In this document: positions 14,886 to 32,340 of the stretch, in pieces | Layout: the number at the start of each line of letters is the position of its first letter | Numbering within the stretch: position 1 is the first letter of the stretch | Origin: Longimicrobiales bacterium | Lineage (GTDB): Bacteria; Gemmatimonadota; Gemmatimonadetes; Longimicrobiales; Gaopeijiaceae | Length of the DNA: 64,000 nt | Direction of reading: 5' to 3' | NCBI GenBank assembly: GCA_963664435.2 | Contig: CAXXKM010000003.1 | Coordinates: forward strand, 1,120,001 to 1,184,000 | The notes under the pieces: generated by a model | Seen by the model: the letters and a program-made list of their open reading frames with translations, nothing else | Database searches by the model: none | Told to the model about the DNA's origin: nothing | Position numbers and translations under genes: made by a program

Positions 14886-14919
14886 TTCGCTGTACACGCT
14901 CGCCCTGCGGTCGATGCCG

Positions 14920-15165: not shown

Positions 15166-15213
15166 GTGCATTGTGGCCGCGCTGCACGACCCAGGGGACG
15201 GGGAGACGGCAAT

Positions 15214-15570: not shown

Positions 15571-16053
15571 AGAAGTGGCGCCCACCCAAGGGACGGAAGC
15601 CGCCGAAGCGGAGGGTGGGGCAACGTCCGTCGCGCAAGCCACGGAAACAACGGCGGCGCCGCCGGGACAAGGGCCGGTGGGAGAAGGAAACAGACGACCG
15701 GATCGAGTGATCAGGTTCGGCACGTCGTCGGAACCACGCGTAGCGCGCCCAAACCTCTCTGCCGTATCGATCCGCCGGGGCCAACCGGAGCCGGTCGTAT
15801 GCTCCTGCCCGCGTCCAGCGACGTTGCCACTCCGGGGCGCGTGCGAGATGGGACCGTCGGAGGGCGGCGGGTCGATCACCCTGCGGGTCGCTGACTGCGT
15901 GGCTGACGGGCGCCGCACTTTGGTGTCCACGGTGGATCCGTGAACGTTCGGTAACCGCGCCACCCGGCCGGCGGGAAACTTCGAGAGCCGCGCCGCGCAG
16001 GTTGCGTGAGCCGGGGCTGGTGGGTGCCTCCTCGTCGTGGTGGTGGTCGCGCG

Positions 16054-16076
16054 GGACGGGCCGGTTGGGCCCGTCC
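16054..16076 (-). terminator. GC-rich hairpin downstream of the dead tnpB and its putative guide
   Basis: 9-bp stem GGACGGGCC/GGCCCGTCC; no U-tract. Confidence 0.5.
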
Positions 16077-16229
16077 GGCGGGTATTGAGTCGGTTCCGGC
16101 CTTCGGCGAACTCAAACTCTCCGGCCTTCGTTCGACGATTCGCGCTTCACGGACCGGACCGGAGTTACCGGTCTCCGCGCGCGTTCGGGGCGCTTGCGCG
16201 CCTCCGGTTCCGGCGGGCCTCGCCGTACC
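16077..16229 (-). ncRNA. Putative omegaRNA (scaffold plus 16-nt guide) overlapping the tnpB 3' end
   Basis: Shares GGTACGGCGAGGC-CGCCGGAACCGG...CCGAACGC-CGCGGAGACCGG...TGAA-CG-GAATCG with the two copies at 26550-26952. This is the usual position of TnpB omegaRNAs. Confidence 0.7.
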
Positions 16230-17194
16230 TGCAGTTGGCGCCCGTGCCAACGGGCCTTGTACTCGAGCTGGCGCAGCATCTCGCTGCTGACGCCCTCGAC
16301 GATGATCGTGCCGGCGGCGAGGACGACGATGGTGGTGAGCTTGTGGTGGCGGTCGCGCTCGCGGTTCCTGATGTTCCTGGCGACATTGCGGAACCGTTCG
16401 AGAACGCGGGCCCGCCGCTTCGAGTCTTCGGTGCAGCGGCTCAAGCGGCGCTGGAGCCGCCTCATCCGCTGCCTGTCGGCGTCGGAGCGCTCGTCCGGTC
16501 CCGGGACTTCGATGGGCCTGCCGTCGAGTTCGACGGCGATGCCCGGGCCGTCCTGGCGCACCACGGCGACCTCCGCCGTGGGCGCGGCGGCATCGACCGG
16601 GCCGCACTCGAACACGCACGAGAACATCCAGCGCTCGCCGGCGTCGCGCCAGACCCGGCCGTACACCATGCCGAGCGTCGTGCGGCTCTTCGGGCCCTCG
16701 AGCCGGCCAGCGGGCAGGCTCCCGCCCAGCCAGCGCATCCAGCCGAACTTCGGCAAGCGGACGCGGTTGCCGTCGAAGCGGGTGCCGTGGCTGGCCACGT
16801 AGATCCCGGGGGCGCGTCCCTCGGGCTTGAACCTCGGCAGCCCCTGGCGCGCGCGTGGCTTGGTGTGCCAGTTGCGGAACGCTCCGTGCATGTCGGTCGC
16901 GATCTGGTAGATGGCGGTGGACGGGAACGGGTCGCGGTTCGGCCTGCGGCGCCACCAGTCCTGGGCGGCCGCGCGGAACTCCTTGCCGGTCATGTGCCGG
17001 CCCGTCTGGGAATACTGCAGGTTCGAGGCGCCGAGCAGGGCGTTCGACAGCTCGCGGAGCCCCTCCCGGCACAGGGCGAGCAGGCGCGCCTGCGGCCGGT
17101 TCGGGTACAGGCGGCACTGCCAGCCGACGTAGCGCGCTTCCCCGTTCGGCCGGGCCGCGCGCGCGCCGGGCGCGGTCGGCCGCTTGGTCGCCAT
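16112..17194 (-). CDS. Nuclease-dead TnpB derivative (TldR-like RNA-guided DNA-binding protein)
   Basis: TnpB hallmarks RLYPNRPQ, GLPRFK, VRLPKFGWMR, RRLQRRLSR, HHKLTT and RQLEYKA are present. RuvC-I GxDxG is replaced by VVRQDG, and the Zn finger and RuvC-III are absent. Confidence 0.85.
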   Translation of the reverse strand: MATKRPTAPGARAARPNGEARYVGWQCRLYPNRPQARLLALCREGLRELSNALLGASNLQYSQTGRHMTGKEFRAAAQDWWRRRPNRDPFPSTAIYQIATDMHGAFRNWHTKPRARQGLPRFKPEGRAPGIYVASHGTRFDGNRVRLPKFGWMRWLGGSLPAGRLEGPKSRTTLGMVYGRVWRDAGERWMFSCVFECGPVDAAAPTAEVAVVRQDGPGIAVELDGRPIEVPGPDERSDADRQRMRRLQRRLSRCTEDSKRRARVLERFRNVARNIRNRERDRHHKLTTIVVLAAGTIIVEGVSSEMLRQLEYKARWHGRQLQVRRGPPEPEARKRPERARRPVTPVRSVKRESSNEGRRV

Positions 17195-17210
17195 GACGCT
17201 CCTCCCTCCC

Positions 17211-20200
17211 CTACCGGAGCTTGATCCGTCCGCGGACGCCCACCGAGTGCTGGGCCGCACCCAGCGCGCTCTCGCGCCGCGTGCCTTCCAGCCGCAGCCC
17301 GACCCCCGCGCCCAGATCGTAGCGCACGCCGCTCGAGAAGGCGCGCGTCCCGCTCTTGCCGAGGTAGAAGCCGCTGTAGGGCGTCCCCTGGAAGCCGGCG
17401 ATGCCGTAGGCCACTTCGCCGTCCACGTTGGGGCCCATGCCCAGGTCCTGGCCGCCCACCGCGTCGGACACCCCGCGCTCCCAGAGCTGGTTGACCCCGC
17501 TCCTGTGGTCGCCGTACGCGGGCGCCACCCGGACCTGCAGCCCCTGGCCCGGGGCCGCCGGGTCGAACATGAGCATGCCGCCGAGGCCCCATTCCTCGTA
17601 GCCTTGGCGCGCCGAGATGACGAACCGGCCGCGGCCCTCCGCGGTCAATCCCAGCCCGGAGTTCGTGTAGCGGAGCCCGCCGCCGACCTCCGCGCTGGTG
17701 CCGTTGATGCCGTCGCCGTTGTCGTAGCGCATCCCGCCCTCGAGCACGAACGCCATCTCCTGCCCCGTGTCGGTGCGGAAGCCTTGCGTCAACTCAAGGG
17801 CAAGCTTGGCGCGCTGCATGTCGAGCGTCACCGTGCCGATCTGCTCGGTGCCCTCGACCTCGAACCGGCCGCTCCAGCCCTCGGCCTTGAGGCTCACGCC
17901 ACCGATGCCGCTCGTGAACAGCTGGTAGCTCGCGCCTCCCGCCCCCGTCATCATGCTGGCGGGGCTGGTGCGGAGCCCTTCCCGCTCGTCGTCGACCTCG
18001 ATGTCGCCCCGGCCGATCCCGGCCGAACCCCACACCGAGGCGCCGCGCGCGCCGGGGAACCAGGCCACGTAAGGATGCGCGCTGGTCATGGTGGTGCCGT
18101 AGGTGCCGGCCACCGGTCGGGCGCCGGTCTTGTCGGTGAAGTCGAAGGAGCCCGAGTTGTACGAGCCCGCGACACCCGCCAGGATGTCCGGCCCCACGCG
18201 CATGTCCACGCCGACGTGGGCGCTCACCATGTTGCCCTTCCAGTCGAGCTCGCTCGCGCCGGGTTCGCCCATGTAGTGGTACTCGCCCGCACCCCAGCTC
18301 GCCATCTGCATGCCGGTCGCGGACTGCTGCGGCGCGTCCGGGGTGCCGAACGGCATCAGGAATGAGGTGCCGCCGAATAGGGCGGCCAAGCCGGCGCCGT
18401 CATTCTGGCCGAGGCCGAGGCCGCCCGGACCCGGCGCGGACAGGCTCGCGGCCATCGACGACAGTCCGTTCGTCTCCACGCTCTGCTCCATGCCCATCCC
18501 GTTGGCCACCGCGTTGACGCGGTTTGCGATCGCCGAGACGGTGCTCGAGGTCATCGCCGCGGCCACCTGCGGCAGGACGCGGGTGTTGAGCCGGCCCGCC
18601 CGCTGCACGGGGTCGTCGGTCGCCGCCGTTGCGCTCGCAGACGCCGCGCCGGTGCCCGCCCGGTTGATCGCCGACACCCGGTAGTGGCGCACGCTGCCCG
18701 GCTGCAGGGCGGTATGCGAAAAGGTGGCAACCGTGGACTCGGTGTTGGTGACCAGGTCCGCCCAGGCGGCGCCCGTCTCCGACACCTCGATGCGGTACCC
18801 GGTGATGGGCGCACCGCCATTGTAGTCGGGCGCGAGCCAGAACAGGTCGATCTGGGTGGGCGAGACATCGGTGGCGACCAGCCCGGTGGGCGCGTCGGGC
18901 ACCGTCGCGTCCGTGGTGGAGCCCGCGACCCGCGACGCGTTGCCCACGCCGATCCGGTTGATCGCCGAGACGCGGTAATGGCGCGTCGAGGCCGGCGCCA
19001 GCCCGCTGTGCGTGTAGACGGTGGCCGTGCTGCGCGTGGCGGCCACCAAGTCCTCCCAGCTCCCGCCCCCGTCGGCCGTGACCTCGATGCGGTAGCCGGT
19101 GATGCGGGCGCCCCCGTCGTCCGCGGGTGCCTGCCAGGAGAGGACGATCTGCGAGGTGCCGGCCGCATCGGCGTTGAGACGTCGCGGCACGCTCGGAACA
19201 GTCGCCTCGGTGGTCGCCCGCGCCACGTTCGAGAACGGCCCCACCCCCGCGAGGTTGATGGCGGCGACCCGGTAGTGGCGGGTGGTTGCGGGCCTCAGGT
19301 TCACGTCCGAGAACGCCGTCGTCGCCGAGTTCGTGTTGCGGCGGATGATGTTCCAGGTCGCGCCCTCGTCGTCGGAGGCCTCGACGCGGTAGCCGAAGAT
19401 CGAGACGCCGCCGGTGTAGCGCGGCGCGTTCCACGACAGGTCGATGCGCGAGGTGCCGACTGCCCGGGCCGTCAGCCCAGTCGGGGCCGCGGCGAAGTCC
19501 GCGTGCGTGAGGGCCGCCCCCGTGAGCGACCACTGCCCGGCGCCCACGCGGTTGATGGCCGCGACCTGGTACTGGTACCGGGTCACTGGGTCAAGCCCGG
19601 TGTGCGTAAAGGTCGTTGTCGTCTCCTCCGTGTTGGGACGGATGATGATCCAGGAGCGATCGTTGGGCCCGAGCATCCGGATGCTGTAGCCGGTGATGCG
19701 CGCCCCTCCGTCGCTCTCCGGCCGGTCCCAGACGAGGAGGACGCTGTTCGGTCCCGTTCCGCGGGCGCGTACGTTCTGCGGCTGCCCGGGAGGCGCCGCA
19801 TCGGTGGTGCCTTGGGCCACGTTGGAGGCGCGTCCCGTACCCACGCCGTTGATCGCGGACACGCGATAGAACCAGGTGGCGGCGGGGCCGAGATTGCTGT
19901 CGGTGTAGATGGTGGCCGTGCTGCCCGTGCCGGGCACATGGATGATCCAGCCGCCGCCGCCGGTGGCGGACCTCTCGATGCGGTAGCCGGTGATCGGGCT
20001 GCCGCCGTCGTCGGGCGGGGCGGACCAGGTGAGGAGGAGTTCGTCGGTTCTCCTCGCGCCCGGAACCACGCTCAGTGCTATGGGCGGGCTCGGAGGGGTG
20101 GCGTCGGTGGTCGCCTGGGCGGTGTTGGACCACGGGCCCAGACCCGCCCGGTTGATCGCTGCTACGCGGTAGTGGCGCGTGGTGGCGGGGCTGAGCTCGT

Positions 20201-21509
20201 CGTCGGTGTAGGTGGTGGCCGTGGACTCGGTGTCGGCCTCGAGCCGCGTCCAGGGGCTGCGTCCGGCCCGCGACCATTCGATGCGGTAGCCGGTGACCGG
20301 CGTCGAGCCGCTGGAGGAGGGGGCGCGCCACCTCAGTTCGATGGCGGACATCCCCCGGGCCTGCGCCGTCAACGACCGAGCCGCGTCCGGCAGGACATCC
20401 TCGGTGGTGGCGTCGGCGACGTTCGAGGGGTCACCCGCCCCGTTGAAGTTGATGGCCGACACCCTGTAGTGCCGCGTGACGCCCCCGGTGAGATCCTTGT
20501 CGTCGCGGTAGCTGGTGTCGGTGTTCCGGGTATTGCGCTCCAGAGTCGACCACGGGTCGCGGCCGTCTTCCGACCACTCGATGAGGTACCCGGTGATCTC
20601 GCGACCGCCATTCGAACTCGGCGCCTCCCACTCCAGTATGATCGCGTCGGGGCCGTCGGCCTCCGCCGTGAGCTTGCGCGGCTCTCCGGGCACCCCGGTG
20701 CGCGCCTCCCCGGTGACGTTTCGCACCGCCCTGTCGAAGCCGAACGCGCGATTGCCGGCCAGATCCCGAAGCGCGTCGGCGCCGCGGTCGTCGTAGAACA
20801 CCCGAACCGCGTCGAGCGTATCGACGGGGCTTGCCAGAAGCAGGAACACATCGCGGGTGGCCACTTCGACCCGGGACACGGTCTTGACGTCGTGTGACAC
20901 GGTGCTATTTCCGAAGGCGACTTGGAAATAGCTGGTCGATGGGACGAAATCCTCATCGAGGTCTTCGTCGAAGGCGATGACGACTTCGTCGCCGTTGACC
21001 TTCGCGTCGCTGACTACAGGGCCCCTGGTGTCCACGTTGATGTTGACCACTCTCGACGGGGTATTCCCCTCCTGCGAGCTGTTCTGCACCACGTTCCCAG
21101 GGATATGGAAGAACACCAGGCCGTCATATTGTTCCGGCATCCTCATCGTGACGACAAACCTCCTGCCTTCGTCACTGTCCAGCGGATCGGCCACTGCACA
21201 CGCCGCGGTCGGGTGCGTGCACGTGATGTTGATGTCGTCGACCGTGAAGCCGGTCACGCTCTGCGAGAAACGGATGACGACGCTGGCAGAGTTCTGTGTG
21301 GACCCGATCCAACTCCATGAAATCGAGGTCGTGGGGGGGACGGCCACGTCGCTCGCCACTGGGGATTCCACAACCGACGGGACGCCCGCACGCGAACCGC
21401 CCACATATGGCTCCTCAGCCTGTACGCCCGCAGATGGAACCAGGAGCGCGCAGACCACTGCGGCCGCCAAGAGGGAACGGACGGGTACGCCAGGCTGATT
21501 CGGAATCAT
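17211..21509 (-). CDS. Fibronectin type III repeat autotransporter-like surface protein
   Basis: Signal peptide, Ig-like and SwmB-like domains, 7 Fn3 repeats (P..P..L.A....I.L.W..P...GG..ITGYRIE), C-terminal beta-barrel. Confidence 0.88.
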   Translation of the reverse strand: MIPNQPGVPVRSLLAAAVVCALLVPSAGVQAEEPYVGGSRAGVPSVVESPVASDVAVPPTTSISWSWIGSTQNSASVVIRFSQSVTGFTVDDINITCTHPTAACAVADPLDSDEGRRFVVTMRMPEQYDGLVFFHIPGNVVQNSSQEGNTPSRVVNINVDTRGPVVSDAKVNGDEVVIAFDEDLDEDFVPSTSYFQVAFGNSTVSHDVKTVSRVEVATRDVFLLLASPVDTLDAVRVFYDDRGADALRDLAGNRAFGFDRAVRNVTGEARTGVPGEPRKLTAEADGPDAIILEWEAPSSNGGREITGYLIEWSEDGRDPWSTLERNTRNTDTSYRDDKDLTGGVTRHYRVSAINFNGAGDPSNVADATTEDVLPDAARSLTAQARGMSAIELRWRAPSSSGSTPVTGYRIEWSRAGRSPWTRLEADTESTATTYTDDELSPATTRHYRVAAINRAGLGPWSNTAQATTDATPPSPPIALSVVPGARRTDELLLTWSAPPDDGGSPITGYRIERSATGGGGWIIHVPGTGSTATIYTDSNLGPAATWFYRVSAINGVGTGRASNVAQGTTDAAPPGQPQNVRARGTGPNSVLLVWDRPESDGGARITGYSIRMLGPNDRSWIIIRPNTEETTTTFTHTGLDPVTRYQYQVAAINRVGAGQWSLTGAALTHADFAAAPTGLTARAVGTSRIDLSWNAPRYTGGVSIFGYRVEASDDEGATWNIIRRNTNSATTAFSDVNLRPATTRHYRVAAINLAGVGPFSNVARATTEATVPSVPRRLNADAAGTSQIVLSWQAPADDGGARITGYRIEVTADGGGSWEDLVAATRSTATVYTHSGLAPASTRHYRVSAINRIGVGNASRVAGSTTDATVPDAPTGLVATDVSPTQIDLFWLAPDYNGGAPITGYRIEVSETGAAWADLVTNTESTVATFSHTALQPGSVRHYRVSAINRAGTGAASASATAATDDPVQRAGRLNTRVLPQVAAAMTSSTVSAIANRVNAVANGMGMEQSVETNGLSSMAASLSAPGPGGLGLGQNDGAGLAALFGGTSFLMPFGTPDAPQQSATGMQMASWGAGEYHYMGEPGASELDWKGNMVSAHVGVDMRVGPDILAGVAGSYNSGSFDFTDKTGARPVAGTYGTTMTSAHPYVAWFPGARGASVWGSAGIGRGDIEVDDEREGLRTSPASMMTGAGGASYQLFTSGIGGVSLKAEGWSGRFEVEGTEQIGTVTLDMQRAKLALELTQGFRTDTGQEMAFVLEGGMRYDNGDGINGTSAEVGGGLRYTNSGLGLTAEGRGRFVISARQGYEEWGLGGMLMFDPAAPGQGLQVRVAPAYGDHRSGVNQLWERGVSDAVGGQDLGMGPNVDGEVAYGIAGFQGTPYSGFYLGKSGTRAFSSGVRYDLGAGVGLRLEGTRRESALGAAQHSVGVRGRIKLR

Positions 21510-21574
21510 CGTGCCTTCTCCGCGTCAGGTGAAATGCGCGGTGGAATAGTCATTTGCTTACCGGTCGTCTGGTG

Positions 21575-21673
21575 AGCGTCACCCCCCGTTCGGGAGTCCC
21601 GAACGGGGGGTGACGCTGTCCCGCGGCCTGCGACCATCAGCCTGGCTGACGGTTAGTCAGCCAGGCTGATGGT
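21575..21673. terminator. Two tandem perfect hairpins (21-bp and 18-bp arms) between the two surface-protein genes
   Basis: AGCGTCACCCCCCGTTCGGGA-G-TCCCGAACGGGGGGTGACGCT and ACCATCAGCCTGGCTGAC-GGTTA-GTCAGCCAGGCTGATGGT. Confidence 0.75.
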
Positions 21674-21683
21674 GTTGAAGGGG

Positions 21684-24600
21684 TTATGGGACATCTACTG
21701 GCGTACCCTCGGTGAAGTCGCCAGCACTGCCCTGTCTCGAGTCGACGCGAACTCTGAACGGCTTGTTGAGTTCGACGTCCGTGATCGCAATCGCCGTTCC
21801 ACCCACCGTGTTCCAGCTCGCGGTGAAGTCATGAATCCACTCCAAGCTCCAACTCCTGGTGGTGCTTGCGATGGTGGCGGGCTCTCCACCTGAGGCGACG
21901 AGCCACAAAGTCGAACCAGTGTTTTCGGAGGCGACCTCAACCATGATCCGGAACTCGGAACTGGTGTTGCTATCGGCGTCCCAAGTGACGGTGAGGGTGT
22001 CGGCAACGGTGGTATCGGCAGTCGCCGCACGACTCGCAGTGACACCGCTGGTCGACGGATCGACCGCGCCGACCGTGACCGGATCGGATTCGATCGTGAA
22101 GGTAAGGTCCGAATCGGTGGGGTGTGCGACCGACGTCACCACTCGAACCATGAAGGTGGTATCGCCCGGCGACGTGAACGTGTAGCTGCCCGGGACATTG
22201 ACCGTAGTGCCGAGGCTGTCGCGCGTCACCAAGGTTGCGCTCGCATCCGTGAAGGTGCCGGTGTAGTTGTGCTGCACCTCGTGCGTGGCGGGGCTGGTGA
22301 ACCCTTCGGGCACGTCCGTGGCGCTGTCGACGAACTTCACGCTGATGTTGCCATCGTAGCGTTCGGATTCGTCGATGTCCTCGGTGGACTCGTCGTCCTC
22401 CGTGCGGGCACGCGATGCGCTGAGGTTCCTAGCCCCAGGCGACAGCGCCTCGATCGCGCCGAAGTTCAAGCTCTGACCCGGTGCGACGCTCACCCTCTGG
22501 TTGTCGTTCGGATACTTGAAGCTGTGGTTCGCCAACGACGCTTCGATGTCATAGGCGCCGAACGGTACGCTGAGCACGAAGGTGCCTCTCGCGTTGCTGG
22601 TGCTCAAGACGTCGTCCCCGGCTGCGCCTGCGACCACGTTCGTGGCCGTGACCGTAACGCCACCCATGGCGTTGCCGTCCGGACCTCTCACCCGGCCCGA
22701 AATCGTCGCATGCTGGAAGCCGGTGAAGTTGATGCCCGAGACCGCCGATCCGGCGTGGGCCGGAACAGACAGCGTCGCAGGCGCGAAGCTCATGCCGTCC
22801 TTCGACACGGTCACATCGGCGCTCTCGCCGAGGTCCTTGGCCGCGAATTCTGCCGTGTAGGTGCCGTCGGCGCCCGTCACGAGCTTGCCCCTGTTCGCAC
22901 CGGTCTTGGCCGCGTTGGTCGGGGCATTGCCGTCAACCTTGATCTCCGCACCGGCGATCGGCGCGCCGCTGCCGGACGCGGTGACCGTACCGCTGATCGA
23001 GGCGATCGTGCCTACGCCCGAAAGATCGACGTCCTGCCGGATCCGGCTGTTTGCGGCAAAGGCCTGGATGTTCCGCGTCTCCCCGCTTCCTCCATGGGCG
23101 GTCTCGACGAAGACGCTGTTCGTGTGCGTCACGGTGCCGATTTTGCGGCTCGCCACGTTCGGCACGTACTCCGCGATGTAGCGGCCGTGTACGTCGGACA
23201 TCGCTACAACACCGTTCACGTTCACGTTCACGCTGTCCACGGGGAAATCCTCCGCGTCCTTCACGTAGCCGTAGACGGTGGTCGTCGCCGGCGTGACGTC
23301 GAGTGAGACGTCACCCGCGAGCGGGTTGAAGGCGTTGCCGACCATGGCCGTGGCGCCCTTCGGACCCAGCCTCGCCCGCCAGCCGTCCGTCACGCTGGCC
23401 TTGTAGACGCCGGCCGCGATGTTGTTGAAGGCGAACTGGTGGGTCTCGTCGAGCACTTCATTGCCCTTGGCGGTCTCACCCGGCCCCCGGACCGGCTTCT
23501 CCGTAGTGGTGGCGGACTCCTCGTCACCCGCGAGATTCTTGCCCTCGACCGGGCTCAGGCTGACGGAAATGCCGGCTACGAACGTGGGGGGGGCACCCTC
23601 GGGATCATATACGTCGACTCCGTCGGTCTTGCCGAACGAGAATCTGTCATCGTTGGCAGTCTCGGTGCTCTTGACGACCACGTTCTTCCAGATCAGCCCG
23701 CTCACCGAGTGCGTGCTGACGTAGGCGAACGACGAGCAAGCGTCGTGGTCCTGCGGGTTCTCGTCCTGCAGCGGGCAGAGCGAAACCGTGTGGCTGTAGC
23801 CGCCCTGCGCACCGAAGTGGCCGCCGGTGATGCCGTTGGCATCCGTGCCGGTGTAGGCGGCGAGCTCATCGGCATGCCCGCCCTCATCGAGGATCATGAT
23901 GCTGAGGTCGGTGTTGTCGGCCTTCGACGCGTTGGCGATCACGTTCATGTCGGCCGGCACGTTGCTGAAGACCCACGCACCGCCGTCACCATTGTCTTTC
24001 GGTTCGCTGATGCTGTCCGCAGCCGTGAACGCGCGCGAGCGTCCGGAGTCGTCGATGTAGCGGAGGTCGACATCGACCTTGCGGTCGGCGCCCTTACCGT
24101 CCCTCTCGTCACCGCCGAGGATGTTGCCGGTGTAGCCTTCGACTTGATCAAGCTCGTGGTGCACGTAGACCTTGAGGGTCTGGGTCGTGAACGCCACCTC
24201 GATCATGTCGGCGTTCTGGGTGCCCGCCAGCATGAGGCCGGTGTGGGTGTACTCGACCGAGCCACCGTCGTAGCTCTCGCCGCCGTCCAGCGTGTTGGCC
24301 TGGTCGTCGTCGACGGCGATGGTGAAGGTCGCCGGCAGGTCGTCGGCTCCCACGGTGGTCGTGAACGCGGCGACGCCGGCTGTGTCCAGCTTCTCCGGCG
24401 CGCCTGCGACCGAGTCTTCGCCTGCCATGACGCTGATGGCCCAGTTGGCGAGCGTGTCGCCGCCACCGTACTCGGTGGTGACGGTGGCACCGCTGATGGC
24501 CACGTCGACGTTCAGGTTGACGATGTCGTTCTCGTTGGCGCCCGCGGCCATGTTGTACTGCGGGTTCCACGACACGACCGTCATGCCGTCGGCCACATGG

Positions 24601-26330
24601 TAGCCGTCGGCGGAGACGCTCGCGTGGACCATGTTGCCGCTGGTGCCGGCGCGCGCGACCCGGATCATCACCGAGCCTTCTTCGCCGGTCATGCCGCTGC
24701 CGATCTTGGTCTCACCGGCCGCGTCCGAGAAGAAATCGACGATCGCGCCGGGAAGCGCGGCACCCATCTCTTCACCGCTCCTCAGCGAGGCTGTGAAGTT
24801 GACCCTGGTGTGCGTGATGTCGAACGGAACCGACTGCGTCACAGCCTCGCCGACACCGAGGGCGACCGCGTAGCCCTCGCCGGGTCCGCCGTAAGCCAAG
24901 TCGTTGGCCGCGAGAGCCGCGGCGACCGTGGCGTTGATGGTCACGACCAACTGGTACGGGCCGGCGCGGAGGCCTGTGAAGGAGAACGCGCCGGTCGAGT
25001 CGGTGAGGCTCACCCGCTGCTCGTTGACGCCCGGGCCCACCAGCACCACCGGAAGACCGGCGTGCGCCAGCGGATGCTCGCCCTCGTCGAACATGTCGTT
25101 CTTGGTCGCCTCGTCAACGTACGCCATGCCGGACACGCTCGCGGTGCGCGCGTGCGCGCCCTCGAAGTTAATGATCGCCGACTCGTCGTCGCCGACCGTC
25201 ACGTCCGTGCTCATCGACTCGAAGACGTAGGCGTCGCTGTCGACCGCGATCGAGACCGTGTAGTCGCCGGCCGCCAAGCCCGCGAAGGAGTACTGGCCGC
25301 CCGCGTCGGTCATCGCGGTGCGGTCGTCCGCGCCCGCCAGCGTGACCGTGATCTCGCCGAGGCCCATGCCCTCGACGCTCACCCGGCCGCTGATGCCGGA
25401 GGTGCGGAGCAGGACGCCGGTGAACGACACGGTGCTGGTCTCATCGAGATCCACGTTCACGTCTTGGGACGTGGACGCGAACTCGTAGTCGCGCGCGTCG
25501 AAGTCAGAGATCGAGACCGTGTAGGCGCCGGGACGCAATTCCTCGAACCGGTACATGCCGTCGGCGTCGGTCATGATGGTGTAGCTCTCGTCGGCGGGAC
25601 CGCCGCTCAGGGTAACCGTCACCCCAGCAAGGCCCTCGCCTTCGATGATCACCTGGCCCTCGACCGCGGAGGTGCGGATGAAGTGGCCCGTGAAGTCGGC
25701 CTGGCCGACATCGCCGACCTCGACCGCTACCTCGACCATCACCGTCTCGAAGGAGACGTCCTCCGGATAGTCGCTGATCGTGACCGTGTAGGTGCCGGCC
25801 CGGAGCCCGGTGAACGCGAAGCCGCCGGTCTCGTCGGTCTCCATGGTCTCGCCCATGGCGTGCTCACCGCCCAGCGTGACCGTAACGCCTGCCAGCGTTT
25901 CGGGCTGGCCGTCGCCGCCGCTCATCATGGCGTCGGCCGCAACCACGTTGCCGACCACTGCGGACGAGCGGATATACTCGCCGGCGAAGTTGAGTTGGAC
26001 GTTCTGACCATCGGTCGCGATGGTCGCGGACTGCGTCACTTCGGCGAACGTCGCGTCCTCGGGGAAGCCGCTGATGGTGACCGTGTAGGTTCCCTCTTCC
26101 ACGCCCGAGAAGGCGAAGTTGCCGCCCGACCCGGTGGTCGTGGTCGCACCGGACGACAGGGTGGCGGTGACGCCGCTGGCGGCCGTGCCCTCGATCGTCA
26201 CCGCCCCGGAGATCGTCCCCACGGCAGCAGGCTCCGGCGGGGGCTCCACTATCGGTGGAGTGCCCTCGTCGCAGGCGGTAATGGTAACGGCCAGCAGCAG
26301 CGCCAGCCCGTGCTTGGTAAAACGGTTCAT
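21684..26330 (-). CDS. Large acidic surface lipoprotein with repeated carboxypeptidase-regulatory-like/SdrD-B-like domains
   Basis: Lipobox ITAC, repeats of GVTVTLSG...TD..G.F.F.GL.AG.YTVTIS, GGAGGG RBS. Confidence 0.88.
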   Translation of the reverse strand: MNRFTKHGLALLLAVTITACDEGTPPIVEPPPEPAAVGTISGAVTIEGTAASGVTATLSSGATTTTGSGGNFAFSGVEEGTYTVTISGFPEDATFAEVTQSATIATDGQNVQLNFAGEYIRSSAVVGNVVAADAMMSGGDGQPETLAGVTVTLGGEHAMGETMETDETGGFAFTGLRAGTYTVTISDYPEDVSFETVMVEVAVEVGDVGQADFTGHFIRTSAVEGQVIIEGEGLAGVTVTLSGGPADESYTIMTDADGMYRFEELRPGAYTVSISDFDARDYEFASTSQDVNVDLDETSTVSFTGVLLRTSGISGRVSVEGMGLGEITVTLAGADDRTAMTDAGGQYSFAGLAAGDYTVSIAVDSDAYVFESMSTDVTVGDDESAIINFEGAHARTASVSGMAYVDEATKNDMFDEGEHPLAHAGLPVVLVGPGVNEQRVSLTDSTGAFSFTGLRAGPYQLVVTINATVAAALAANDLAYGGPGEGYAVALGVGEAVTQSVPFDITHTRVNFTASLRSGEEMGAALPGAIVDFFSDAAGETKIGSGMTGEEGSVMIRVARAGTSGNMVHASVSADGYHVADGMTVVSWNPQYNMAAGANENDIVNLNVDVAISGATVTTEYGGGDTLANWAISVMAGEDSVAGAPEKLDTAGVAAFTTTVGADDLPATFTIAVDDDQANTLDGGESYDGGSVEYTHTGLMLAGTQNADMIEVAFTTQTLKVYVHHELDQVEGYTGNILGGDERDGKGADRKVDVDLRYIDDSGRSRAFTAADSISEPKDNGDGGAWVFSNVPADMNVIANASKADNTDLSIMILDEGGHADELAAYTGTDANGITGGHFGAQGGYSHTVSLCPLQDENPQDHDACSSFAYVSTHSVSGLIWKNVVVKSTETANDDRFSFGKTDGVDVYDPEGAPPTFVAGISVSLSPVEGKNLAGDEESATTTEKPVRGPGETAKGNEVLDETHQFAFNNIAAGVYKASVTDGWRARLGPKGATAMVGNAFNPLAGDVSLDVTPATTTVYGYVKDAEDFPVDSVNVNVNGVVAMSDVHGRYIAEYVPNVASRKIGTVTHTNSVFVETAHGGSGETRNIQAFAANSRIRQDVDLSGVGTIASISGTVTASGSGAPIAGAEIKVDGNAPTNAAKTGANRGKLVTGADGTYTAEFAAKDLGESADVTVSKDGMSFAPATLSVPAHAGSAVSGINFTGFQHATISGRVRGPDGNAMGGVTVTATNVVAGAAGDDVLSTSNARGTFVLSVPFGAYDIEASLANHSFKYPNDNQRVSVAPGQSLNFGAIEALSPGARNLSASRARTEDDESTEDIDESERYDGNISVKFVDSATDVPEGFTSPATHEVQHNYTGTFTDASATLVTRDSLGTTVNVPGSYTFTSPGDTTFMVRVVTSVAHPTDSDLTFTIESDPVTVGAVDPSTSGVTASRAATADTTVADTLTVTWDADSNTSSEFRIMVEVASENTGSTLWLVASGGEPATIASTTRSWSLEWIHDFTASWNTVGGTAIAITDVELNKPFRVRVDSRQGSAGDFTEGTPVDVP

Positions 26331-26396
26331 CTTTCCCTCCTGGGAGTGGGTTGCGGTCAGCGAGGAAACATGGAGCCTCGCGGCTCACGCTTACGG

Positions 26397-26412
26397 AGCA
26401 ACAACGGTGCCA
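26397..26412 (-). promoter_or_regulatory. Sigma-54 -24/-12 promoter of the surface lipoprotein gene
   Basis: TGGCACCGTTGTTGCT has the exact GG-N10-GC spacing, about 70 bp upstream of the ATG. Confidence 0.8.
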
Positions 26413-26481
26413 CCCGAGGAAGCCCGGTTTTACAGTGGGTTTCGGCCCGTACGCTCCGGCCTGGGACCGCCGCTCCCGGTT

Positions 26482-26504
26482 TTCTGACGGTCAAGACGTC
26501 AGAA
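26482..26504. promoter_or_regulatory. Candidate enhancer (bEBP) binding palindrome
   Basis: TTCTGACG-N7-CGTCAGAA lies 70-90 bp upstream of the -24 box. Confidence 0.55.
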
Positions 26505-26533
26505 TTCTGGTGGCGCCCCGGGGCCGGGCCCCG

Positions 26534-26738
26534 CGTAGCGGTTAAAGCGATTCCGGCAGTCGCTGGGTCGGTCCCGGGGGGTGCCCGGCTCTGTATCGCG
26601 ATTCACGGTTCAGCGACCGCCACGGTAGCCGAAGCCCCATGGTAACCCGGTCTCCGCGTGCGTTCGGGACGCCAAGGTCCCCGGTTCCGGCGTGCCTCGC
26701 CGTACCGTAACAGGGTTGCGCGCCGCGTTTGACGCCGC
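26534..26738 (-). ncRNA. Stand-alone omegaRNA-like unit 1 (189-nt scaffold plus putative guide CGCTTTAACCGCTACG)
   Basis: Homologous to the tnpB 3' end; one frame reads LLRYGEARRNR, a relic TnpB C-terminus. The 16 nt after the scaffold are followed by a GC hairpin. Confidence 0.72.
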
Positions 26739-26748
26739 CAAGCCGCAC

Positions 26749-26952
26749 TATAGCGGCACACCAAATTCCGGCAGTCGCTGGGGCGGTCCCGCGGGCCGCC
26801 CGACTCTGCATCGCGATTCACGGTTCAGCGACCGCCACGGCAGCCGAGGCCCCACGGTAACCCGGTCTCCGCGTGCGTTCGGGACGCCAAGGTCCCCGGT
26901 TCCGGCGTGCCTCGCCGTACCGTAACAGGTTGTGTGCCGCGTTTGACGCCGC
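26749..26952 (-). ncRNA. Stand-alone omegaRNA-like unit 2 (188-nt scaffold plus putative guide TTGGTGTGCCGCTATA)
   Basis: Near-identical direct repeat of unit 1 at a 215-bp period; reads NAAHNLLRYGEARRNR, a RuvC-III relic. Confidence 0.72.
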
Positions 26953-27794
26953 TCCCCATGGCGTCGCCCCTGCGGTCACCCCAGCCCTCTCTCGATCCTC
27001 CAGTTTCGCGATCCGGCGCTCGTTCGGGCCGAGGCCGCTGACAGGGCCTTCCGCAGGCCCGCGCGGGCGCGCCCCTTCGGCAGCCGCTCGCGGTATCGGT
27101 CGAACTCCCTCTGTCTCGTCCTCGGACAGCATGAAGAAGTCGGTCTCGTTCATTTCGGTTACTCAAGGACCCCAAGGGCCCCCGCTCCAGACCTACAATT
27201 GTGCGGAAAACGCGCAAGCGATGCTAGCTCCGTTGCAGTTCTCACCGCAACTTCGGGTCCTTCGGAAGAGGGGGCAGCGGAGAGTGCTCTTGGTCCGGCG
27301 ACGCAGAAGCCCTGGTGCCCAAGCCACCCGCCAACGATACAGCGGGCAGTACAAAGAACGCGGCAGGAGCCGGGGCTTGCTGGTTCTGGCTTCCGCTCAG
27401 CCATCGACGACCCTCCGGTAGAGGCCGCAGACGAATGGCGAATTCGAGGCCGGCCGCCTTCGCCGACTCCTGGAGGTCGGCGAACTTCTCGGCGTCGACG
27501 CGCTTCTCGCTGTACTCCTCGCCGGGAGCAGCCGAGGTATCGCAGTCCTTCCAGAATCCCTTGTTGAAGTCGCTTTGCCGCCCCTGCACCGGTAACCGTG
27601 CTCGCAAACGAGGGGTGGGGGAGTCTCCGACGGTCCAGTAAGCCCTCGCCGGGGCTGCCCGGACCTTGAACCGGTGGCGTCCGTGCGCAACGCCTCCGCC
27701 GACCTGCATCTCCGGTCCTCCCAAGCCCCCTACCGGAAGTCCCGGGCGTCCCGCCGAGGGCATTCAGACGCGCTGCTGGCGGCAGTGTCCTTTG

Positions 27795-28303
27795 GCTACT
27801 TTACGGTATCGACCATCCTCGAACGTTATCGGACATAGGGCGCCTCGCTACGAGTTGACTCGCCTGCAAGAGGCTTGTCACCGTTCCTTGCATGGCAAGG
27901 GGCGGCTCCGCCCCCCCGACCCCAAGGGCCTTCCGCGCCGGTGTCCGCCGAAACCCGGACAGGGCGGACGGCGCAGAGGTGAAGAGTGTCCTCGTCCCGA
28001 GACCGGCGCCATTGGTCGACGGGCAGGCGGGAAAGGGATGGTGCAGGACACCACCCAACTCTTCAAGCTGTTCGCCGACAACCCGGACTTCCGGCGGTGG
28101 CTGACGGACGCCGTTTTCCGGCTGGCCTACGAAGCGACGGGCTGACGAGCGCGGGCGGCGTTACGGGGGCGTGTTTCCGCCCCGTTGGCGACGACCGCCG
28201 CCTGCTACTTTACGTTATCGGACCTCCTCGGACGTTATCGGCCAATAGGAGATTTTCGACGGGTTGACTTGCCGGCGAGCGCCTCTTCAGCGTTCCAGGT
28301 ATG
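27795..28303 (+). repeat. Duplicated ~100-bp operator/promoter module (27795-27894 and 28204-28303)
   Basis: Both copies read GCTACTTTACG-TATCG...ACGTTATCGG...GTTGACT-GCC...CGTTCC...ATGG, at a 409-bp offset. Confidence 0.7.
28038..28145 (+). pseudogene. Type I restriction subunit R (HsdR) extreme C-terminal fragment
   Basis: QDTTQLFKLFADNPDFRRWLTDAVFRLAYE. Confidence 0.65.
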
Positions 28304-28844
28304 GAGACGCAGAAGTACCTGTTCAGCATGCGGGTCGGCACCTCCCTCGGGGACACCGGCGCGCCGTCCCCGAGGGCATTGGTGATGAAGGCCTCCGGTT
28401 CGGACCTCGGCGATGGCCCCGTCCCCGAAGCCCCCAAGGTGGACGCGGATCGGCTTCGGCGGCCTTCGTCCCCGCCGACTGGATTGAAACCAGTCGCGGA
28501 TGAACTCCGTCATATGCCGCCCTTCGGCTCACCGAAGCGTGGAGGGCAGCACGAGCAAACGAGGCGAAACACCGGAGGAGACGCACGTAGTCAGGTTGAT
28601 CCACGCCACGGCGGAACCGGTGCCCGCGCCCCTCGACAGGGACGCTGGGGGGATCGGTCGCCGCTTTGGCTTCGGGGGTACATGGACGGCGCGGCATTGC
28701 TGGCCACCATCCCACCGTTGGCCGCGCTTCGCGAGGCCCGTCTGAACGGGTTCCCCGGAGCGCGTGCGGTGGTGCGCCGCCACGGCATTGGCGGCAGCCG
28801 GCGACGGGTCTCGGACACGTCGCCGACGGGGTCGTTGGACGCGG

Positions 28845-28890
28845 CTAAGGGCGGTAAGCCAGCCTACCCGTTGTCATACAACGGGGCTGG
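28845..28890. other. ColE1/MOBP5-type oriT
   Basis: CTGGCTTA nic-like motif on the minus strand (28855-28862), an adjacent inverted repeat CCCGTTGT..ACAACGGG, directly upstream of mobC. Confidence 0.7.
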
Positions 28891-28994
28891 CGAGGGGATG
28901 GCTCCCGCCCCCCCTTCGAACCCCCCGCGCGTCGCGCTCCCGTGGAGGTCGCGCTTGGGGGCGCCGCCCCCATCCCCCGCGCCGGTGCGGCGTG

Positions 28995-29333
28995 ATGCCA
29001 GAGCGCCGCACCGCCGTCGTCACCGCCCGCGTATCGGCGACCGAGTTCGCCGACTGGCGGGCCAAAGCCGCAGCCGCAGGCGTGCCCCTGTCGGCGCTCA
29101 TCCGGCGAGCCATGGCCCGTACTCGGACCTGGACGGCCCGCGCGGCCGAGGTCGAGCGCGAGCGCACCCGGGAGGCCGGCCGCATCGGCAACAACCTCAA
29201 CCAGATCGCTCGGTGGGCAAACACCCACAAGGGGTCGGCCGAGGCCGTCGAGGTGATCGCCCGCCTTGTCGCCATAGAGCGGGCCCTCACGGCGCTTGCT
29301 CGCTTCGAGAGCCCGGACTCCGATGCACATTAA
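28995..29333 (+). CDS. mobC: Mobilization accessory protein MobC/MbeC
   Basis: RHH-like N-terminus and RIGNNLNQIARWAN motif. Confidence 0.9.
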   Translation: MPERRTAVVTARVSATEFADWRAKAAAAGVPLSALIRRAMARTRTWTARAAEVERERTREAGRIGNNLNQIARWANTHKGSAEAVEVIARLVAIERALTALARFESPDSDAH

Positions 29334-30867
29334 GTTCCTGGCGCACGGGACCGGCTCGGCCGGCAAGGCGGCTGGCTACCTGTTGGGGGAGCGGGACGCC
29401 GCCGGGAAGCCGCGCGAGGGCGTCGAGGTGCTGCGCGGGAACCCGGACATGGTGGCCGCGGTGGCCGATTCGCTCGACTTCGAGCACAGGTACACGTCCG
29501 GCGTGATCGCCTGGGCGCCGGACGACCAACCCACCGACGAGCAGATCGAGGCGGTCCTGGACGCCTTCGAGAAGACGGCCTGGGCGGGACTGGAACCCGA
29601 CCGCTACGCATGGGCGGCCGTGCTCCACCGCGAGCGCGGCGGAGGGGCTCACGTCCACGTCCTTGCCGCACGGTGTGACCTCGAAACCGGCCGCAGCCTC
29701 AACATCGCGCCTCCGGGATGGCGGAGGGCGTTCGATCCGCTCCGCGACGCCTTCAACCACGAGCACGGCTGGAGCCGGCCGGACGATCCGGCCAGGGCCA
29801 GAGTGCAGCACCCCGGCCACCGCGCCTACGTCGAAGCGGCACAGCTGCGGGCCGGGCTCCGGCTCGAATCCTCCCCCCGCGACCTGATCCGGGACTACCT
29901 GTTTCAGAGGGTCGAGCACGGCACGGTGCGGAATCGCCACGATGTCGTGTACGCACTGCGGGAGGCGGGCCTCGAAGTGCCGCGCCAGGGCAAGGACTAC
30001 CTCACCGCGCTCGACCCCGAGACCGGGGACCGGTGGCGGCTGAAAGGAGAACTGTATGGAGAGAACTTCGACCGCGAACGATTTGACCGAACGGCTGCGG
30101 AGACGGCTGGAGAGCGAACGCAGGGAGATCGAGGAGTTGACCGCGAGCGAGCTCGCACAGCTCGCCGAGAACTCGCGGCGCGTCGTGAGGAACGCGCTGC
30201 GTACCATCGAGCGCGATACGGAGGAGGCGACCGGGCGGATGCGCGAGTTGCTGGTCAAGGCGTGGCTCCGGCCGCTGATCGTCGGCCTGAGTCTTTGGAT
30301 CGGTTTCTTCGGCGGAAGCTGGGCGACGATGCGCTGGTTGGCGGGCAGCATTCAGGACCGGATCGTGACCCGCGCCGAACTAAACCGGGACATCGAGGAC
30401 GCCCGGCGAACGCTGGCCCAACTGGAGGTGGATACCTGGGGGCTCGTGTTCCACGAGATCGAGGGCGAGCGGTTCGTGGTGGTGCCGGACGGGGTGCTGG
30501 CCGATCCGCCCTGGTGGGTGGACGGGGATCGTCCGGCGTTGAAGCTGTCGAACGAGTAAAGGAGGTCTATGACGCGTTAGAGGAGCAGTTGACGAGAGCC
30601 TTGCGGAGGCTGTGCGCGCAGTACGAAACGGAACAGCGGCGGCACTCCGGGCAGGTCGAAGCCTTGCAGCGGCAGGTCGAAGCCTTGCAAGGGCGCGTCG
30701 AGCGGCAAAGCGGGGAGAACGAAGCCTTGCGGCAGCACGTCGAGCGGCAGAGCGCGGAGAACGAAGCCTTGCAGATGCGAATCGAGCGGCTCGACGCGCT
30801 AGCGACACGCTTGGCCGAGTATTCCGGGACATCCGCCGTCGCGAGACCGCGCGGCCTCGGTATCTGA
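29323..30867 (+). CDS. mobA: Relaxase MobA/MbeA-like; C-terminus shifted into the MobD frame
   Basis: MHIKF..GTGS...AAGYLL, YTSGVIAW, VLHRE....AHVHVL and GRSLNIAPPG motifs. Confidence 0.88.
   Translation: MHIKFLAHGTGSAGKAAGYLLGERDAAGKPREGVEVLRGNPDMVAAVADSLDFEHRYTSGVIAWAPDDQPTDEQIEAVLDAFEKTAWAGLEPDRYAWAAVLHRERGGGAHVHVLAARCDLETGRSLNIAPPGWRRAFDPLRDAFNHEHGWSRPDDPARARVQHPGHRAYVEAAQLRAGLRLESSPRDLIRDYLFQRVEHGTVRNRHDVVYALREAGLEVPRQGKDYLTALDPETGDRWRLKGELYGENFDRERFDRTAAETAGERTQGDRGVDRERARTARRELAARREERAAYHRARYGGGDRADARVAGQGVAPAADRRPESLDRFLRRKLGDDALVGGQHSGPDRDPRRTKPGHRGRPANAGPTGGGYLGARVPRDRGRAVRGGAGRGAGRSALVGGRGSSGVEAVERVKEVYDALEEQLTRALRRLCAQYETEQRRHSGQVEALQRQVEALQGRVERQSGENEALRQHVERQSAENEALQMRIERLDALATRLAEYSGTSAVARPRGLGI
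30056..30559 (+). CDS. MbeB-like mobilization protein nested in an alternate frame of the relaxase
   Basis: Own AAGGAG RBS, coiled coil plus one TM helix, same nested layout as ColE1 mbeB. Confidence 0.7.
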   Translation: MERTSTANDLTERLRRRLESERREIEELTASELAQLAENSRRVVRNALRTIERDTEEATGRMRELLVKAWLRPLIVGLSLWIGFFGGSWATMRWLAGSIQDRIVTRAELNRDIEDARRTLAQLEVDTWGLVFHEIEGERFVVVPDGVLADPPWWVDGDRPALKLSNE

Positions 30868-31048
30868 TGCGCCGCCCGGGACCGGACCGCGATCAGGGTC
30901 CGAGCCGCTGACGATGGCGTCCAGTCGCTTGCCACCCGAACGCCGCAGCGTCCGGCGCGCCGTCAACCGCCCGTCTGGCGGAGACGCCTTGCCGAAGCGA
31001 AGTTTCAAACGCGCAGATCGTGCGGTCCATCACGAGAGGAATCGAGTG

Positions 31049-32218
31049 ATGGCACGCACGAAACGAAGTCGGCGCTCGTACAGCGCCGGCGAATGGGGCC
31101 GGAATCGGGTCCGGGTCTTTACCGATCCCAGAACCGGCATCATCCAGGTCGACTGGCGCGAGAACGGGCGCAGGCTCACCCGGTCGCTGAAGCACCGCGA
31201 CTGGGCGCTGGCCAAGAAGCAGGCCGACGAGATCGCCGCCGGGCTCGCCGAGCCGGTGGCCGCGGGCCCGGCCGAAGCCGAGCTCGAGCCGCTCACCCTC
31301 AAGACGCTTTTTGACATCTACGTTGAAGAGGTGACGCCCACCAAGGCGGACTCGTCTCAGCAGTCCGACCGGGCCGCGATGCGGATGTTCCTCCGGTTCT
31401 TCGGGAAGCACCGAAAAGCCGCGACGCTCTCCCGGCGTGACTGGGATCGCTTCATCCGGGCGCGCCGCGCGGGAAAGGCCGGCGGCAGCCGTCGGCCCGT
31501 CGCCGGCCGGACCATTCAAAAGGACCTGAAGTTGCTGCTCGCGGTCCTCAATTGGGCCGCGAGATCGCGGGACGAGGAGGGAAGGCTCCTCCTCGCGTCG
31601 AATCCGCTCCGGGGCCTCAAGTCTCCGACCGAGAAGAACCCGCTCCGGGTGACGCTCACCCAAGCGGAGTACGAGGCGCTGCTTCGGGTGGCCGGGGACG
31701 TGGATTGGCGGTTCCGCGTGGCTCTGGTTCTTGCCCACGAGACGGGACACCGTATCGGGGCGATCTGCAAGCTTCGCTGGTCCGATGTCGACCTCGAGGC
31801 TAGGACCATCCGGTGGCGCAGCGAACACGAGAAGACCGGGTACGAACACCAAACGCCGATCACCTCCATGGCGCGGGCCATTCTGGTGGAGGCGCGCAGG
31901 CGCAACCCCGGGATCGGCGACGCGCCGGTGATGCCCGCGCCGAAGGACCCTTCGGCGTGCATGACCCGCTGGCTGGCGAGCGGTTGGTGGAAGAAGGCCG
32001 AAGGACGCGCGGGGCTCGAGCCCAAGCGGGGCCGCGGCTGGCACTCGCTGAGGCGCAAGTTTGCTTCGGACCTCATGGACCTGCCTCTGAAGGTGCTCTG
32101 CGACCTGGGCGGCTGGAAGACCGCCCAGACGGTCCTCCAGTGCTACCAGAAGCCCGATGAGGAACGCCTCAGGAGGGCTCTTGAGGAGTACCGGGAGGCC
32201 GGTTTTGGGTCCAATTAG
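31049..32218 (+). CDS. Tyrosine integrase of element A
   Basis: ETGHRIG (R), EHEKTG (K), WHSLRR (HxxR), GGW and QCY; ends next to the tRNA 3' end. Confidence 0.93.
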   Translation: MARTKRSRRSYSAGEWGRNRVRVFTDPRTGIIQVDWRENGRRLTRSLKHRDWALAKKQADEIAAGLAEPVAAGPAEAELEPLTLKTLFDIYVEEVTPTKADSSQQSDRAAMRMFLRFFGKHRKAATLSRRDWDRFIRARRAGKAGGSRRPVAGRTIQKDLKLLLAVLNWAARSRDEEGRLLLASNPLRGLKSPTEKNPLRVTLTQAEYEALLRVAGDVDWRFRVALVLAHETGHRIGAICKLRWSDVDLEARTIRWRSEHEKTGYEHQTPITSMARAILVEARRRNPGIGDAPVMPAPKDPSACMTRWLASGWWKKAEGRAGLEPKRGRGWHSLRRKFASDLMDLPLKVLCDLGGWKTAQTVLQCYQKPDEERLRRALEEYREAGFGSN

Positions 32219-32265
32219 CGAACATAAATAGCGAACATCGGGACCCCCGAGTCGCGTAAGTTCAA

Positions 32266-32340
32266 TGGGCGCTGCAGGATTCGAACCTGCGACCTCCTGC
32301 TTGTAAGGCAGGCGCTCTGAACCAACTGAGCTAAGCGCCC
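32266..32340 (-). tRNA. tRNA-Val (anticodon TAC), CCA not encoded
   Basis: GGGCGCTTAGCTCAGTTGGTTCAGAGCGCCTGCCTTACAAGCAGGAGGTCGCAGGTTCGAATCCTGCAGCGCCCA folds as a cloverleaf. Confidence 0.97.

Follow-up and report, generated by a model that had tools for sequence, protein, structure and literature searches.

The closest described counterparts of the locus reported here are the omegaRNAs (reRNAs) of the ISDra2 type, in which a TnpB-family gene shares its 3' end with the scaffold, and the scaffold closes with a fixed 3' motif, after which the flank begins. According to the sections of Altae-Tran et al. (PMC10691335) cited here, standalone omegaRNAs exist and work in trans, being "evidently mobilized" and functioning with compatible effectors. 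For the origin of arrays, the same sections name a possible path "by serial duplication of omegaRNA segments"; they also report omegaRNA arrays alongside one inactivated TnpB clade and propose duplication of a whole scaffold as a route to omegaRNA arrays and to de novo CRISPR arrays. Since array formation by duplication is already published in those sections, a tandem of two scaffold units is a known kind of thing. A further counterpart is TldR, which the cited part of bioRxiv 10.1101/2023.11.30.569447 describes as having lost RuvC residues and as truncated at its C-terminus. For CRISPR arrays, we use as a definition at least three repeats of about 23-50 nt, uniform spacers, and cas genes or a tracrRNA nearby.

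The window analysed here is the whole stretch of 64,000 nucleotides, and the genome that holds it is called G000; other G-numbers denote its relatives in the genus, 19 genomes in all. Within the window lies a pair of scaffold units, for both of which the minus strand is the functional strand. Read along that strand, the pair and its flank are laid out as follows.

26765..26952, minus strand: unit 2, the upstream scaffold copy (repeat search, BLAST, and a covariance model match at 26765-26921 with 104.0 bits)
26739..26764, minus strand: spacer of 26 nt, the 'guide 2' region, consisting of TTGGTGTG and then a small hairpin, GCCGC-TATAGT-GCGGC
26550..26738, minus strand: unit 1, the downstream scaffold copy (repeat search, BLAST, and a covariance model match at 26550-26706 with 104.5 bits)
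26534..26549, minus strand: 'guide 1', the 16 nt after unit 1, CGCTTTAACCGCTACG, orthologous to the flank in G002, G017 and G005
26519..26533, minus strand: GC hairpin CGGGGCCCGGCCCCG, kept in G002 and G017 and nearly kept in G005

The initial annotation, made from the sequence without database searches, had described tandem direct repeats with a 215-bp period, and this was borne out. BLAST aligned 26550-26738 with 26765-26952 on the minus strand at 93.65% identity over 189 nt, a repeat search of the window returned 165 nt at 95% plus 25 nt at 92% with a spacing of 214-215, and Tandem Repeats Finder gave a period of 215, 1.9 copies and a score of 720. Both units have GCCGGAAT as their 3' end, and identity between them ends abruptly there, with unlike sequences behind it, just as had been reported; the related copy inside a gene of the window, described below, ends in GCCGGAAC instead. 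Unit 2 is made up of the last ~32 nt of a tnpB-derived coding relic followed by a 157-nt scaffold ending in GCCGGAAT. The statement that the repeats keep the relic NAAHNLLRYGEARRNR is right for unit 2, in which the coding relic SNAAHNLLRYGEARRNR is in frame, but not for unit 1, where a 1-nt insertion shifts the frame and only LLRYGEARRNR is left.

The two units differ from each other at 12 places (11 substitutions and one indel), and these lie away from the conserved core: a single one of the 12 falls inside the 67 columns that are invariant in 22 gene-linked scaffolds, where about 4 would be expected (binomial estimate, p~0.04). At these invariant columns the units show 2 and 3 deviations, as opposed to 7 and 8 for the scaffolds of G002 and G017. 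The spacer is altered far more than the scaffold, with 7 of its first 8 nt differing from the unit 1 flank; the motif CCGCTA is common to the spacer and that flank at the same offset. No second copy of the spacer was found in the G000 genome.

Like a CRISPR array, the pair alternates direct repeats with unlike short sequences. Unlike one, it has two repeats of 189 nt, one 26-nt spacer, no cas gene and no leader, and no TnpB/Cas12-type gene adjoins it, so that it does not count as a CRISPR array under the definition given above. Nor was spacer turnover seen between strains. Sequencing runs were examined as assembled contigs. A contig of run X4, whose strain differs slightly from G000 in the neighbourhood, spans 26678-26839 with zero changes. 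The array and its spacer are thus stable in the samples seen, and the guide variation between strains that the initial annotation proposed to look for did not appear at this junction.

Downstream of the units, on the same strand, an operon-like row continues with a lipoprotein gene and a fibronectin-III gene and has a TldR-like gene last.

26398..26412, minus strand: TGGCAC-N5-TTGC motif upstream of the lipoprotein gene, also found upstream of all five aligned paralog copies
21684..26330, minus strand: lipoprotein of 1548 aa with CarboxypepD_reg repeats, a member of a paralog family; the units lie 220 nt upstream on the same strand
17211..21509, minus strand: fibronectin-III repeat protein of 1432 aa, between the lipoprotein and TldR-like genes
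16112..17194, minus strand: TldR-like 'tnpB' of 360 aa (Pfam OrfB_IS605 at 31.1 bits, cut-off 30.5; match to ISDra2 TnpB)
16093..16229, minus strand: in-gene guide-RNA scaffold, overlapping the last codons and ending in GCCGGAAC (covariance model, 107.7 bits)
16054..16092, minus strand: in-gene guide region, CGACTCAATACCCGCC and then the hairpin GGACGGGCC-CAAC-CGGCCCGTCC

The TGGCAC-N5-TTGC motif resembles the sigma-54 consensus and may mark a promoter of that type. A scan of 26200-27500 for sigma-70 promoters returned none, and shuffles also expect none.

The gene 10 kb from the pair had been called tnpB, which is apt insofar as it encodes a TnpB-derived homolog, but the product is a 360-aa truncated form that ends shortly after EYKARWHGRQLQV and has neither the zinc finger nor RuvC-III. 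It matches ISDra2 TnpB (8h1j) with an E value of 1.2e-10 over residues 25-303, carries an arginine at the RuvC-I aspartate position and keeps the glutamate, two of the three catalytic residues being lost. A disrupted RuvC triad and a truncated C-terminus are the features by which TldR is recognised, and judged by them the protein belongs with TldR. The gene is not a transposase accessory gene, and RNA-guided DNA binding or repression is its putative role. G000 has four such genes with the same truncated end, two of them identical and two, on contig C1, at about 52% identity.

Compared with TldR as presented in the cited part of the preprint, the in-gene copy and its relatives are alike in having an adjacent guide RNA whose short guide start is conserved across species. 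The first 10 nt of this guide type (C3 type), CGACTCAATA, are identical in G000, G007, G018 and G010, and the hairpin behind them varies in sequence between species while being retained. The initial annotation had taken 16 nt between end motif and GC hairpin as a guide length; this spacing does occur in unit 1 and in the in-gene copy, but it is 17 nt in G002 and G017, and a conserved guide of 16 nt is not what the in-gene type shows, since only about the first 10 nt are shared among relatives. The first 8 nt of the C3-type guide occur at many paralog start codons as ATGAAC|CGACTCAA, matches that extend over 8 nt only. The in-gene guide also matches 13 nt at G000 C3:1188124, which was set aside because G007 has no counterpart.

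To place the units among other scaffolds, we aligned 27 scaffolds from the genus (alignment A1), which fall into three subtypes: the unit type, the C3 type of the window's gene and the C1 type of the C1 genes. RNAalifold predicted five helices on this alignment, and in both units the conserved helices are all intact and the core is untouched. At the predicted pairs 99.3% of cells can pair, against 20-36% with the partners slid, for a structure derived from these same sequences. The covariation score exceeded that of 500 out of 500 shuffles, but 14 of the 20 pairs are invariant and 3 change on both sides; a further hairpin with A-U, G-C and C-G swaps was recognised by eye. The covariance model R1 was built from A1 with the units in its seed alignment. 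Both units match it at each of its 132 positions; their scores of 104.5 and 104.0 bits are, given that seed, not independent. The in-gene scaffold scored 107.7 bits. Independently of the model, BLAST found a 60-nt core at 82-87% in 4 gene-linked copies. The homology of the repeats to the 3' end of the window's tnpB, which had been asserted, is covered by BLAST over only 62 nt at 82%, and the rest was recovered by the model. Folding of single units by minimum free energy was not clearly better than that of shuffles (z of -1.7 and -0.5), and Rfam at gathering thresholds found only tRNA in the whole window. With model scores of 104 bits each, the tandem is one of real TnpB-family guide-RNA scaffolds, as the initial annotation had supposed.

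The covariance model search that had been suggested there recovered 49 scaffolds in 16 of the 19 genus genomes, from 1 to 8 per genome, but gene-less scaffolds in tight tandem were found in G000 only. G000 itself holds 6 scaffolds, namely the two units and four gene-linked copies. Unit-type scaffolds occur at this locus only, in G000, G002, G017, G005 and G007, and two stem insertions set the subtype apart from the scaffolds that belong to the four resident proteins.

The sister genomes provide the history of the locus. G002 and G017 each hold one gene-less unit. On its upstream side the flank corresponds to the flank of unit 2 (up to window position 27358); on its downstream side it corresponds to the flank of unit 1 and continues into the lipoprotein gene. 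The two units of G000 are 93.7% identical to each other, as against about 85-87% to the unit of G002, a value near the flank identity of 82.5%, and both begin at the same nucleotide. Where the unit 1 flank and the spacer have the derived CCGCTA, G002 has CCGTTTTA and G005 has CCGTTTA. Substitutions and an indel show that the unit 1 flank drifts among G000, G002/G017 and G005. In local alignments the spacer gave nothing significant against either flank or against the zinc-finger region of tnpB (p 0.11-1.0), and the argument that CCGCTA makes for duplication rests on the shared register and the outgroups.

In G005 and G007, a full-length ISDra2-like tnpB with its own unit-type scaffold stands just upstream of the orthologous lipoprotein gene. 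The G005 protein (408 aa; Pfam OrfB_IS605, Cas12f1-like_TNB and HTH_OrfB_IS605) matches ISDra2 TnpB (8h1j) with an E value of 3.9e-51 and keeps the zinc finger and DRALNAARNFLRYGE, but reads GVALG where the aligned nuclease has GVDLG. The full-length genes lie at L036 6809-8035 (G005) and L037 ~4683-5900 (G007), with GVALG in both. Both proteins have alanine at the RuvC-I aspartate position and keep the glutamate and the RuvC-III DR motif, and may already be catalytically dead. Beside the shared downstream flank in G005 lies the ortholog of unit 1, which has a 62-nt internal deletion and extends further 5' into zinc-finger codons, so that a relic, a full gene and a second relic are stacked within 1.9 kb. 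No homologous region is shared by G005 and G007 upstream of the gene. When the G005 and G007 proteins were searched against G000 with tblastn, only the four truncated homologs were found, at 38-43% identity, and no protein of the matching type; no tnpB-type gene adjoins the two units in G000.

The unit-type family resembles ISDra2-type omegaRNAs in that its scaffold and the 3' end of a TnpB-family gene overlap, in the fixed motif that closes the scaffold before the flank, in its conserved helices with some compensatory changes, and in the match of the G005 cognate to ISDra2 TnpB. It departs from them in that the two units have no adjoining gene and showed no left end, in that unit-type copies are confined within the genus to one locus instead of being scattered, and in the alanine that the G005 and G007 cognates have for the RuvC-I aspartate. 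With no adjoining gene and one locus in 5 genomes, the units are not classed as right ends of an IS200/IS605 element.

We consider it most probable, at roughly 0.6, that the pair is a lineage-specific tandem duplication of a gene-less relic, most likely inert and slowly decaying. The comparison shows directly that the units are homologous, that the locus is orthologous and that relatives hold a single unit; the order of events that we infer would run as follows. A TnpB-family gene would once have stood directly upstream of the giant lipoprotein gene, and the units would be the guide-RNA part of this lost gene, that is, its last codons with the omegaRNA/gRNA scaffold. In the lineage leading to G000, G002 and G017 the coding part would have been lost, leaving one gene-less scaffold, and in the G000 species a 215-bp segment, the scaffold with about 26 nt of flank, would then have been duplicated head to tail. 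That the units would be inert leftovers follows from the fact that G000 has no protein of the matching type and no evident target. Against the relic reading stand the sparing of the core by the differences between the units, the unchanged junction in the X4 strain and the same-strand position upstream of an operon-like row. Neutral drift following a plain duplication would not be expected to change 7 of the first 8 nt after unit 2, which also counts against it.

These points bear on the principal alternative, in which the nuclease-dead, TldR-like TnpB homologs of the genome would employ both units in trans as gene-less guide RNAs. G000 has two C1-type genes for such homologs (C1:914790-915889 and C1:1101786-1102825), with the guide GAATCAG(G/C)G. 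In A1, GAATCAG stands behind each of the 17 C1-type scaffolds, and a few bases further on their flanks no longer agree with one another. The 12-mer TGAACGAATCAG (TGAAC+GAATCAG) has 15 matches in 14 of the 19 genomes, while the reversed control has 0, and every one of the 15 lies on the antisense strand just upstream of a lipoprotein-gene paralog, between the TGGCAC-N5-TTGC motif and the start codon. The candidate targets in G000 are C2:54992-55003 (+) and C2:12969-12980 (-), where TTGAAC+GAATCAGGG stands about 30 nt upstream of the C2 paralogous lipoprotein genes. The C1-type genes of G000, G005 and G007 lie a few kb from other paralogs, in divergent orientation, and the two G000 paralogs that adjoin them are without the 12-mer site. 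Also without a site are the scaffold-free genomes G006, G008 and G015 and, in addition, the scaffold-bearing G017 and G018, a comparison among kindred and hence not independent genomes.

This has the appearance of a TldR-type circuit in which paralogous surface-protein genes would be addressed through a (T)GAAY TAM, with the C1-type genes as a candidate new TldR clade. Set beside TldR as given in the cited part of the preprint, the C1 type has in common that a TAM-flanked match precedes a paralog of the gene to which it is linked, comparable to fliC, and the genes are likewise stably linked to non-transposon genes. The differences are a sponge-symbiont host and giant lipoprotein partners with sigma-54-like promoters, in a system known here from sequence alone; also, the two orphan units adjoin no such gene. 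Most scaffolds of the genus go with truncated proteins that have lost key catalytic residues, with fixed short guides and with linkage to a giant lipoprotein family, and may thus mark a new TldR-type clade that perhaps chooses which surface protein is made. Among the papers listed by our literature searches, which were not aimed specifically at this link, none dealt with a connection between TnpB-derived regulators and lipoprotein families of this kind. As a separate observation, the two identical target-carrying paralogs (G000 C2:54970 and C2:13000) read ATGAACTGA where their relatives read ATGAACCGA, which gives a stop at codon 3.

If the orphan units fed this circuit, they would add two guides to RNA-guided control of surface-protein genes, the new guide having arisen by duplication followed by replacement of its 8-nt seed, and a guide array could then be said to start by whole-scaffold duplication. 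In favour of this, each copy retains every conserved helix and an unaltered core, the units' 104 bits come close to the 107.7 bits of the in-window gene-linked scaffold (with the units in the seed, and so not independent), the small hairpin has been kept behind a seed that was replaced, and the units share strand and neighbourhood with the TldR-like gene. Standalone trans-acting omegaRNAs and duplication-formed omegaRNA arrays, moreover, are on record in the cited sections of PMC10691335. Measured against the standalone omegaRNAs and arrays of those sections, the pair is similar in lacking an adjoining effector while related effectors are present in the genome, and in the tandem duplication of a whole scaffold; it is dissimilar in being confined to one locus and two copies, with no cognate effector, no convincing target for either guide and no transcript found. 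Against use in trans, the scaffold subtype differs by the two stem insertions, the resident proteins are only 38-43% identical to the cognate, the G005 ortholog is broken, and G002 and G017 show more decay than G000.

The target searches weigh on both sides. Searches of the units' own genome with 20-mers of the guides at up to 3 mismatches and with 16-mers at up to 1 mismatch gave no second match; 16-mer matches at 2 mismatches in G000 were scattered singles, which we read as chance. For unit 1, GAAT+CGCTTTAA (the scaffold end plus the first 8 guide nt, 12 nt in total) has one other site in G000, at C1:893431 (-), where a gene for a TonB-dependent receptor with CarboxypepD_reg and Plug domains starts ATGAAT|CGCTTTAA. 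Besides this site and unit 1 itself, GAAY followed by the first 8 guide bases of unit 1 occurs nowhere in G000. A match of seed and GAAT to the start codon of an outer-membrane receptor gene speaks for use in trans, but it is a match of 12 nt, and the relatives' own flanks gave no comparable one; for the unit 2 guide, no GAAY-preceded match was found in G000, which leaves unit 2 without a target. ATGAAYCGCTTK sites in relatives were considered as a test of the unit 1 match and rejected, being mostly one conserved 54-codon stretch that is apparently not a start. Among viral contigs the unit 2 guide had 0 matches, and the 11 matches of the unit 1 guide were discarded, as they lie in several unrelated contexts and none is preceded by GAAY. 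A degenerate pattern for the G005 and G007 guides proved too common to be useful, and the 6 sites that were followed showed no extension beyond 8 nt. In 15-mer scans of metagenome and genome contigs, nhmmer found one weak partial scaffold (E 6.5e-4) among the matches listed, at 241 loci; the result covers these 241 loci and so says nothing about arrays elsewhere.

Transcripts were sought in the same assembled contigs. Run X9, a sponge metatranscriptome library, contains a 197-nt contig over 26546-26707 at 90-95% identity, which spans the NAARNFL codons and the scaffold and reaches to about 11 nt past GGAAT. As it runs upstream into tnpB-type sequence, it originates from a related unit-type element; such RNAs may be abundant in a relative, although a contig shows neither ends nor strand. 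None of the RNA-library contigs covers the G000 array itself.

We would regard use of the units in trans as possible but doubtful. The working CRISPR-like trans array of the initial annotation is not supported: the matching-subtype protein is absent from G000, the same place in sister genomes has one unit or the full gene, the unit 1 flank is ordinary orthologous sequence drifting with indels, and the search yielded no target for unit 2, only the 12-nt match for unit 1, and no array transcript. Identical 'guides' at all loci, named there as the sign of ordinary sequence flanking dead element ends, were half found, in that the unit 1 guide is the orthologous flank of G002, G017 and G005.

A bolder form of the same idea, which we hold to be unlikely, is that the pair is a newborn two-guide array: a guide-RNA module would have been duplicated and one 8-nt seed replaced, and nuclease-dead descendants of TnpB would use both RNAs in trans to switch paralogous giant surface proteins and outer-membrane receptors. 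Were it true, the pair would represent a naturally occurring step from an omegaRNA with one fixed guide towards an array with several, serving regulation and not defence. Under the relic reading, the pair by itself is one more case of a gene-less TnpB guide scaffold, probably decaying, and its value lies in the context that it exposes.

Very unlikely, in our assessment, is the derivation of the pair from two separate, side-by-side element insertions, each truncated later to leave two independent dead right ends. The stack of relic, full gene and relic in G005 suggests that repeated insertion or rearrangement has taken place at this locus, but independent truncations would not give two units a common start nucleotide, the units are nearer to each other than to any other copy, G002 and G017 hold one unit between the same flanks, and the spacer showed no significant likeness to the tnpB sequence upstream of a unit (shuffle p 0.17-1.0). 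It is extremely improbable that a 215-nt gene-less, PATE-like mini-transposon with a short hairpin end and a right end inserted just after a resident scaffold, for although the spacer hairpin GCCGC-TATAGT-GCGGC could serve as such an end and the scaffold end GGAAT resembles the TAM-like GAAY at candidate targets, no further copy was found in G000 or among the 49 covariance model matches in 19 genomes.

Beyond the array, 26953-28300, which leads to a mobilisable island, contains no convincing gene. The island, at 28764-32340, carries a NikA/MobC-like protein, a relaxase of the MobA/VirD2 type, a tyrosine integrase and a tRNA, and a second integrase lies beyond it. On the other side, window positions 9957-25985 form a 16-kb inverted duplication (99.87%) with G000 C3:1778193-1794204, which reaches the end of the C3 contig. 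The duplication stops 565 bp short of the array and takes in both identical TldR-like copies, the fibronectin-III gene and the greater part of the lipoprotein gene; either an assembly repeat or a cassette that inverts or recombines could account for it. Two inverted copies of the C3-type guide, about 9 kb apart, are likewise present in G010 and G018, and in G010 both scaffolds are full.
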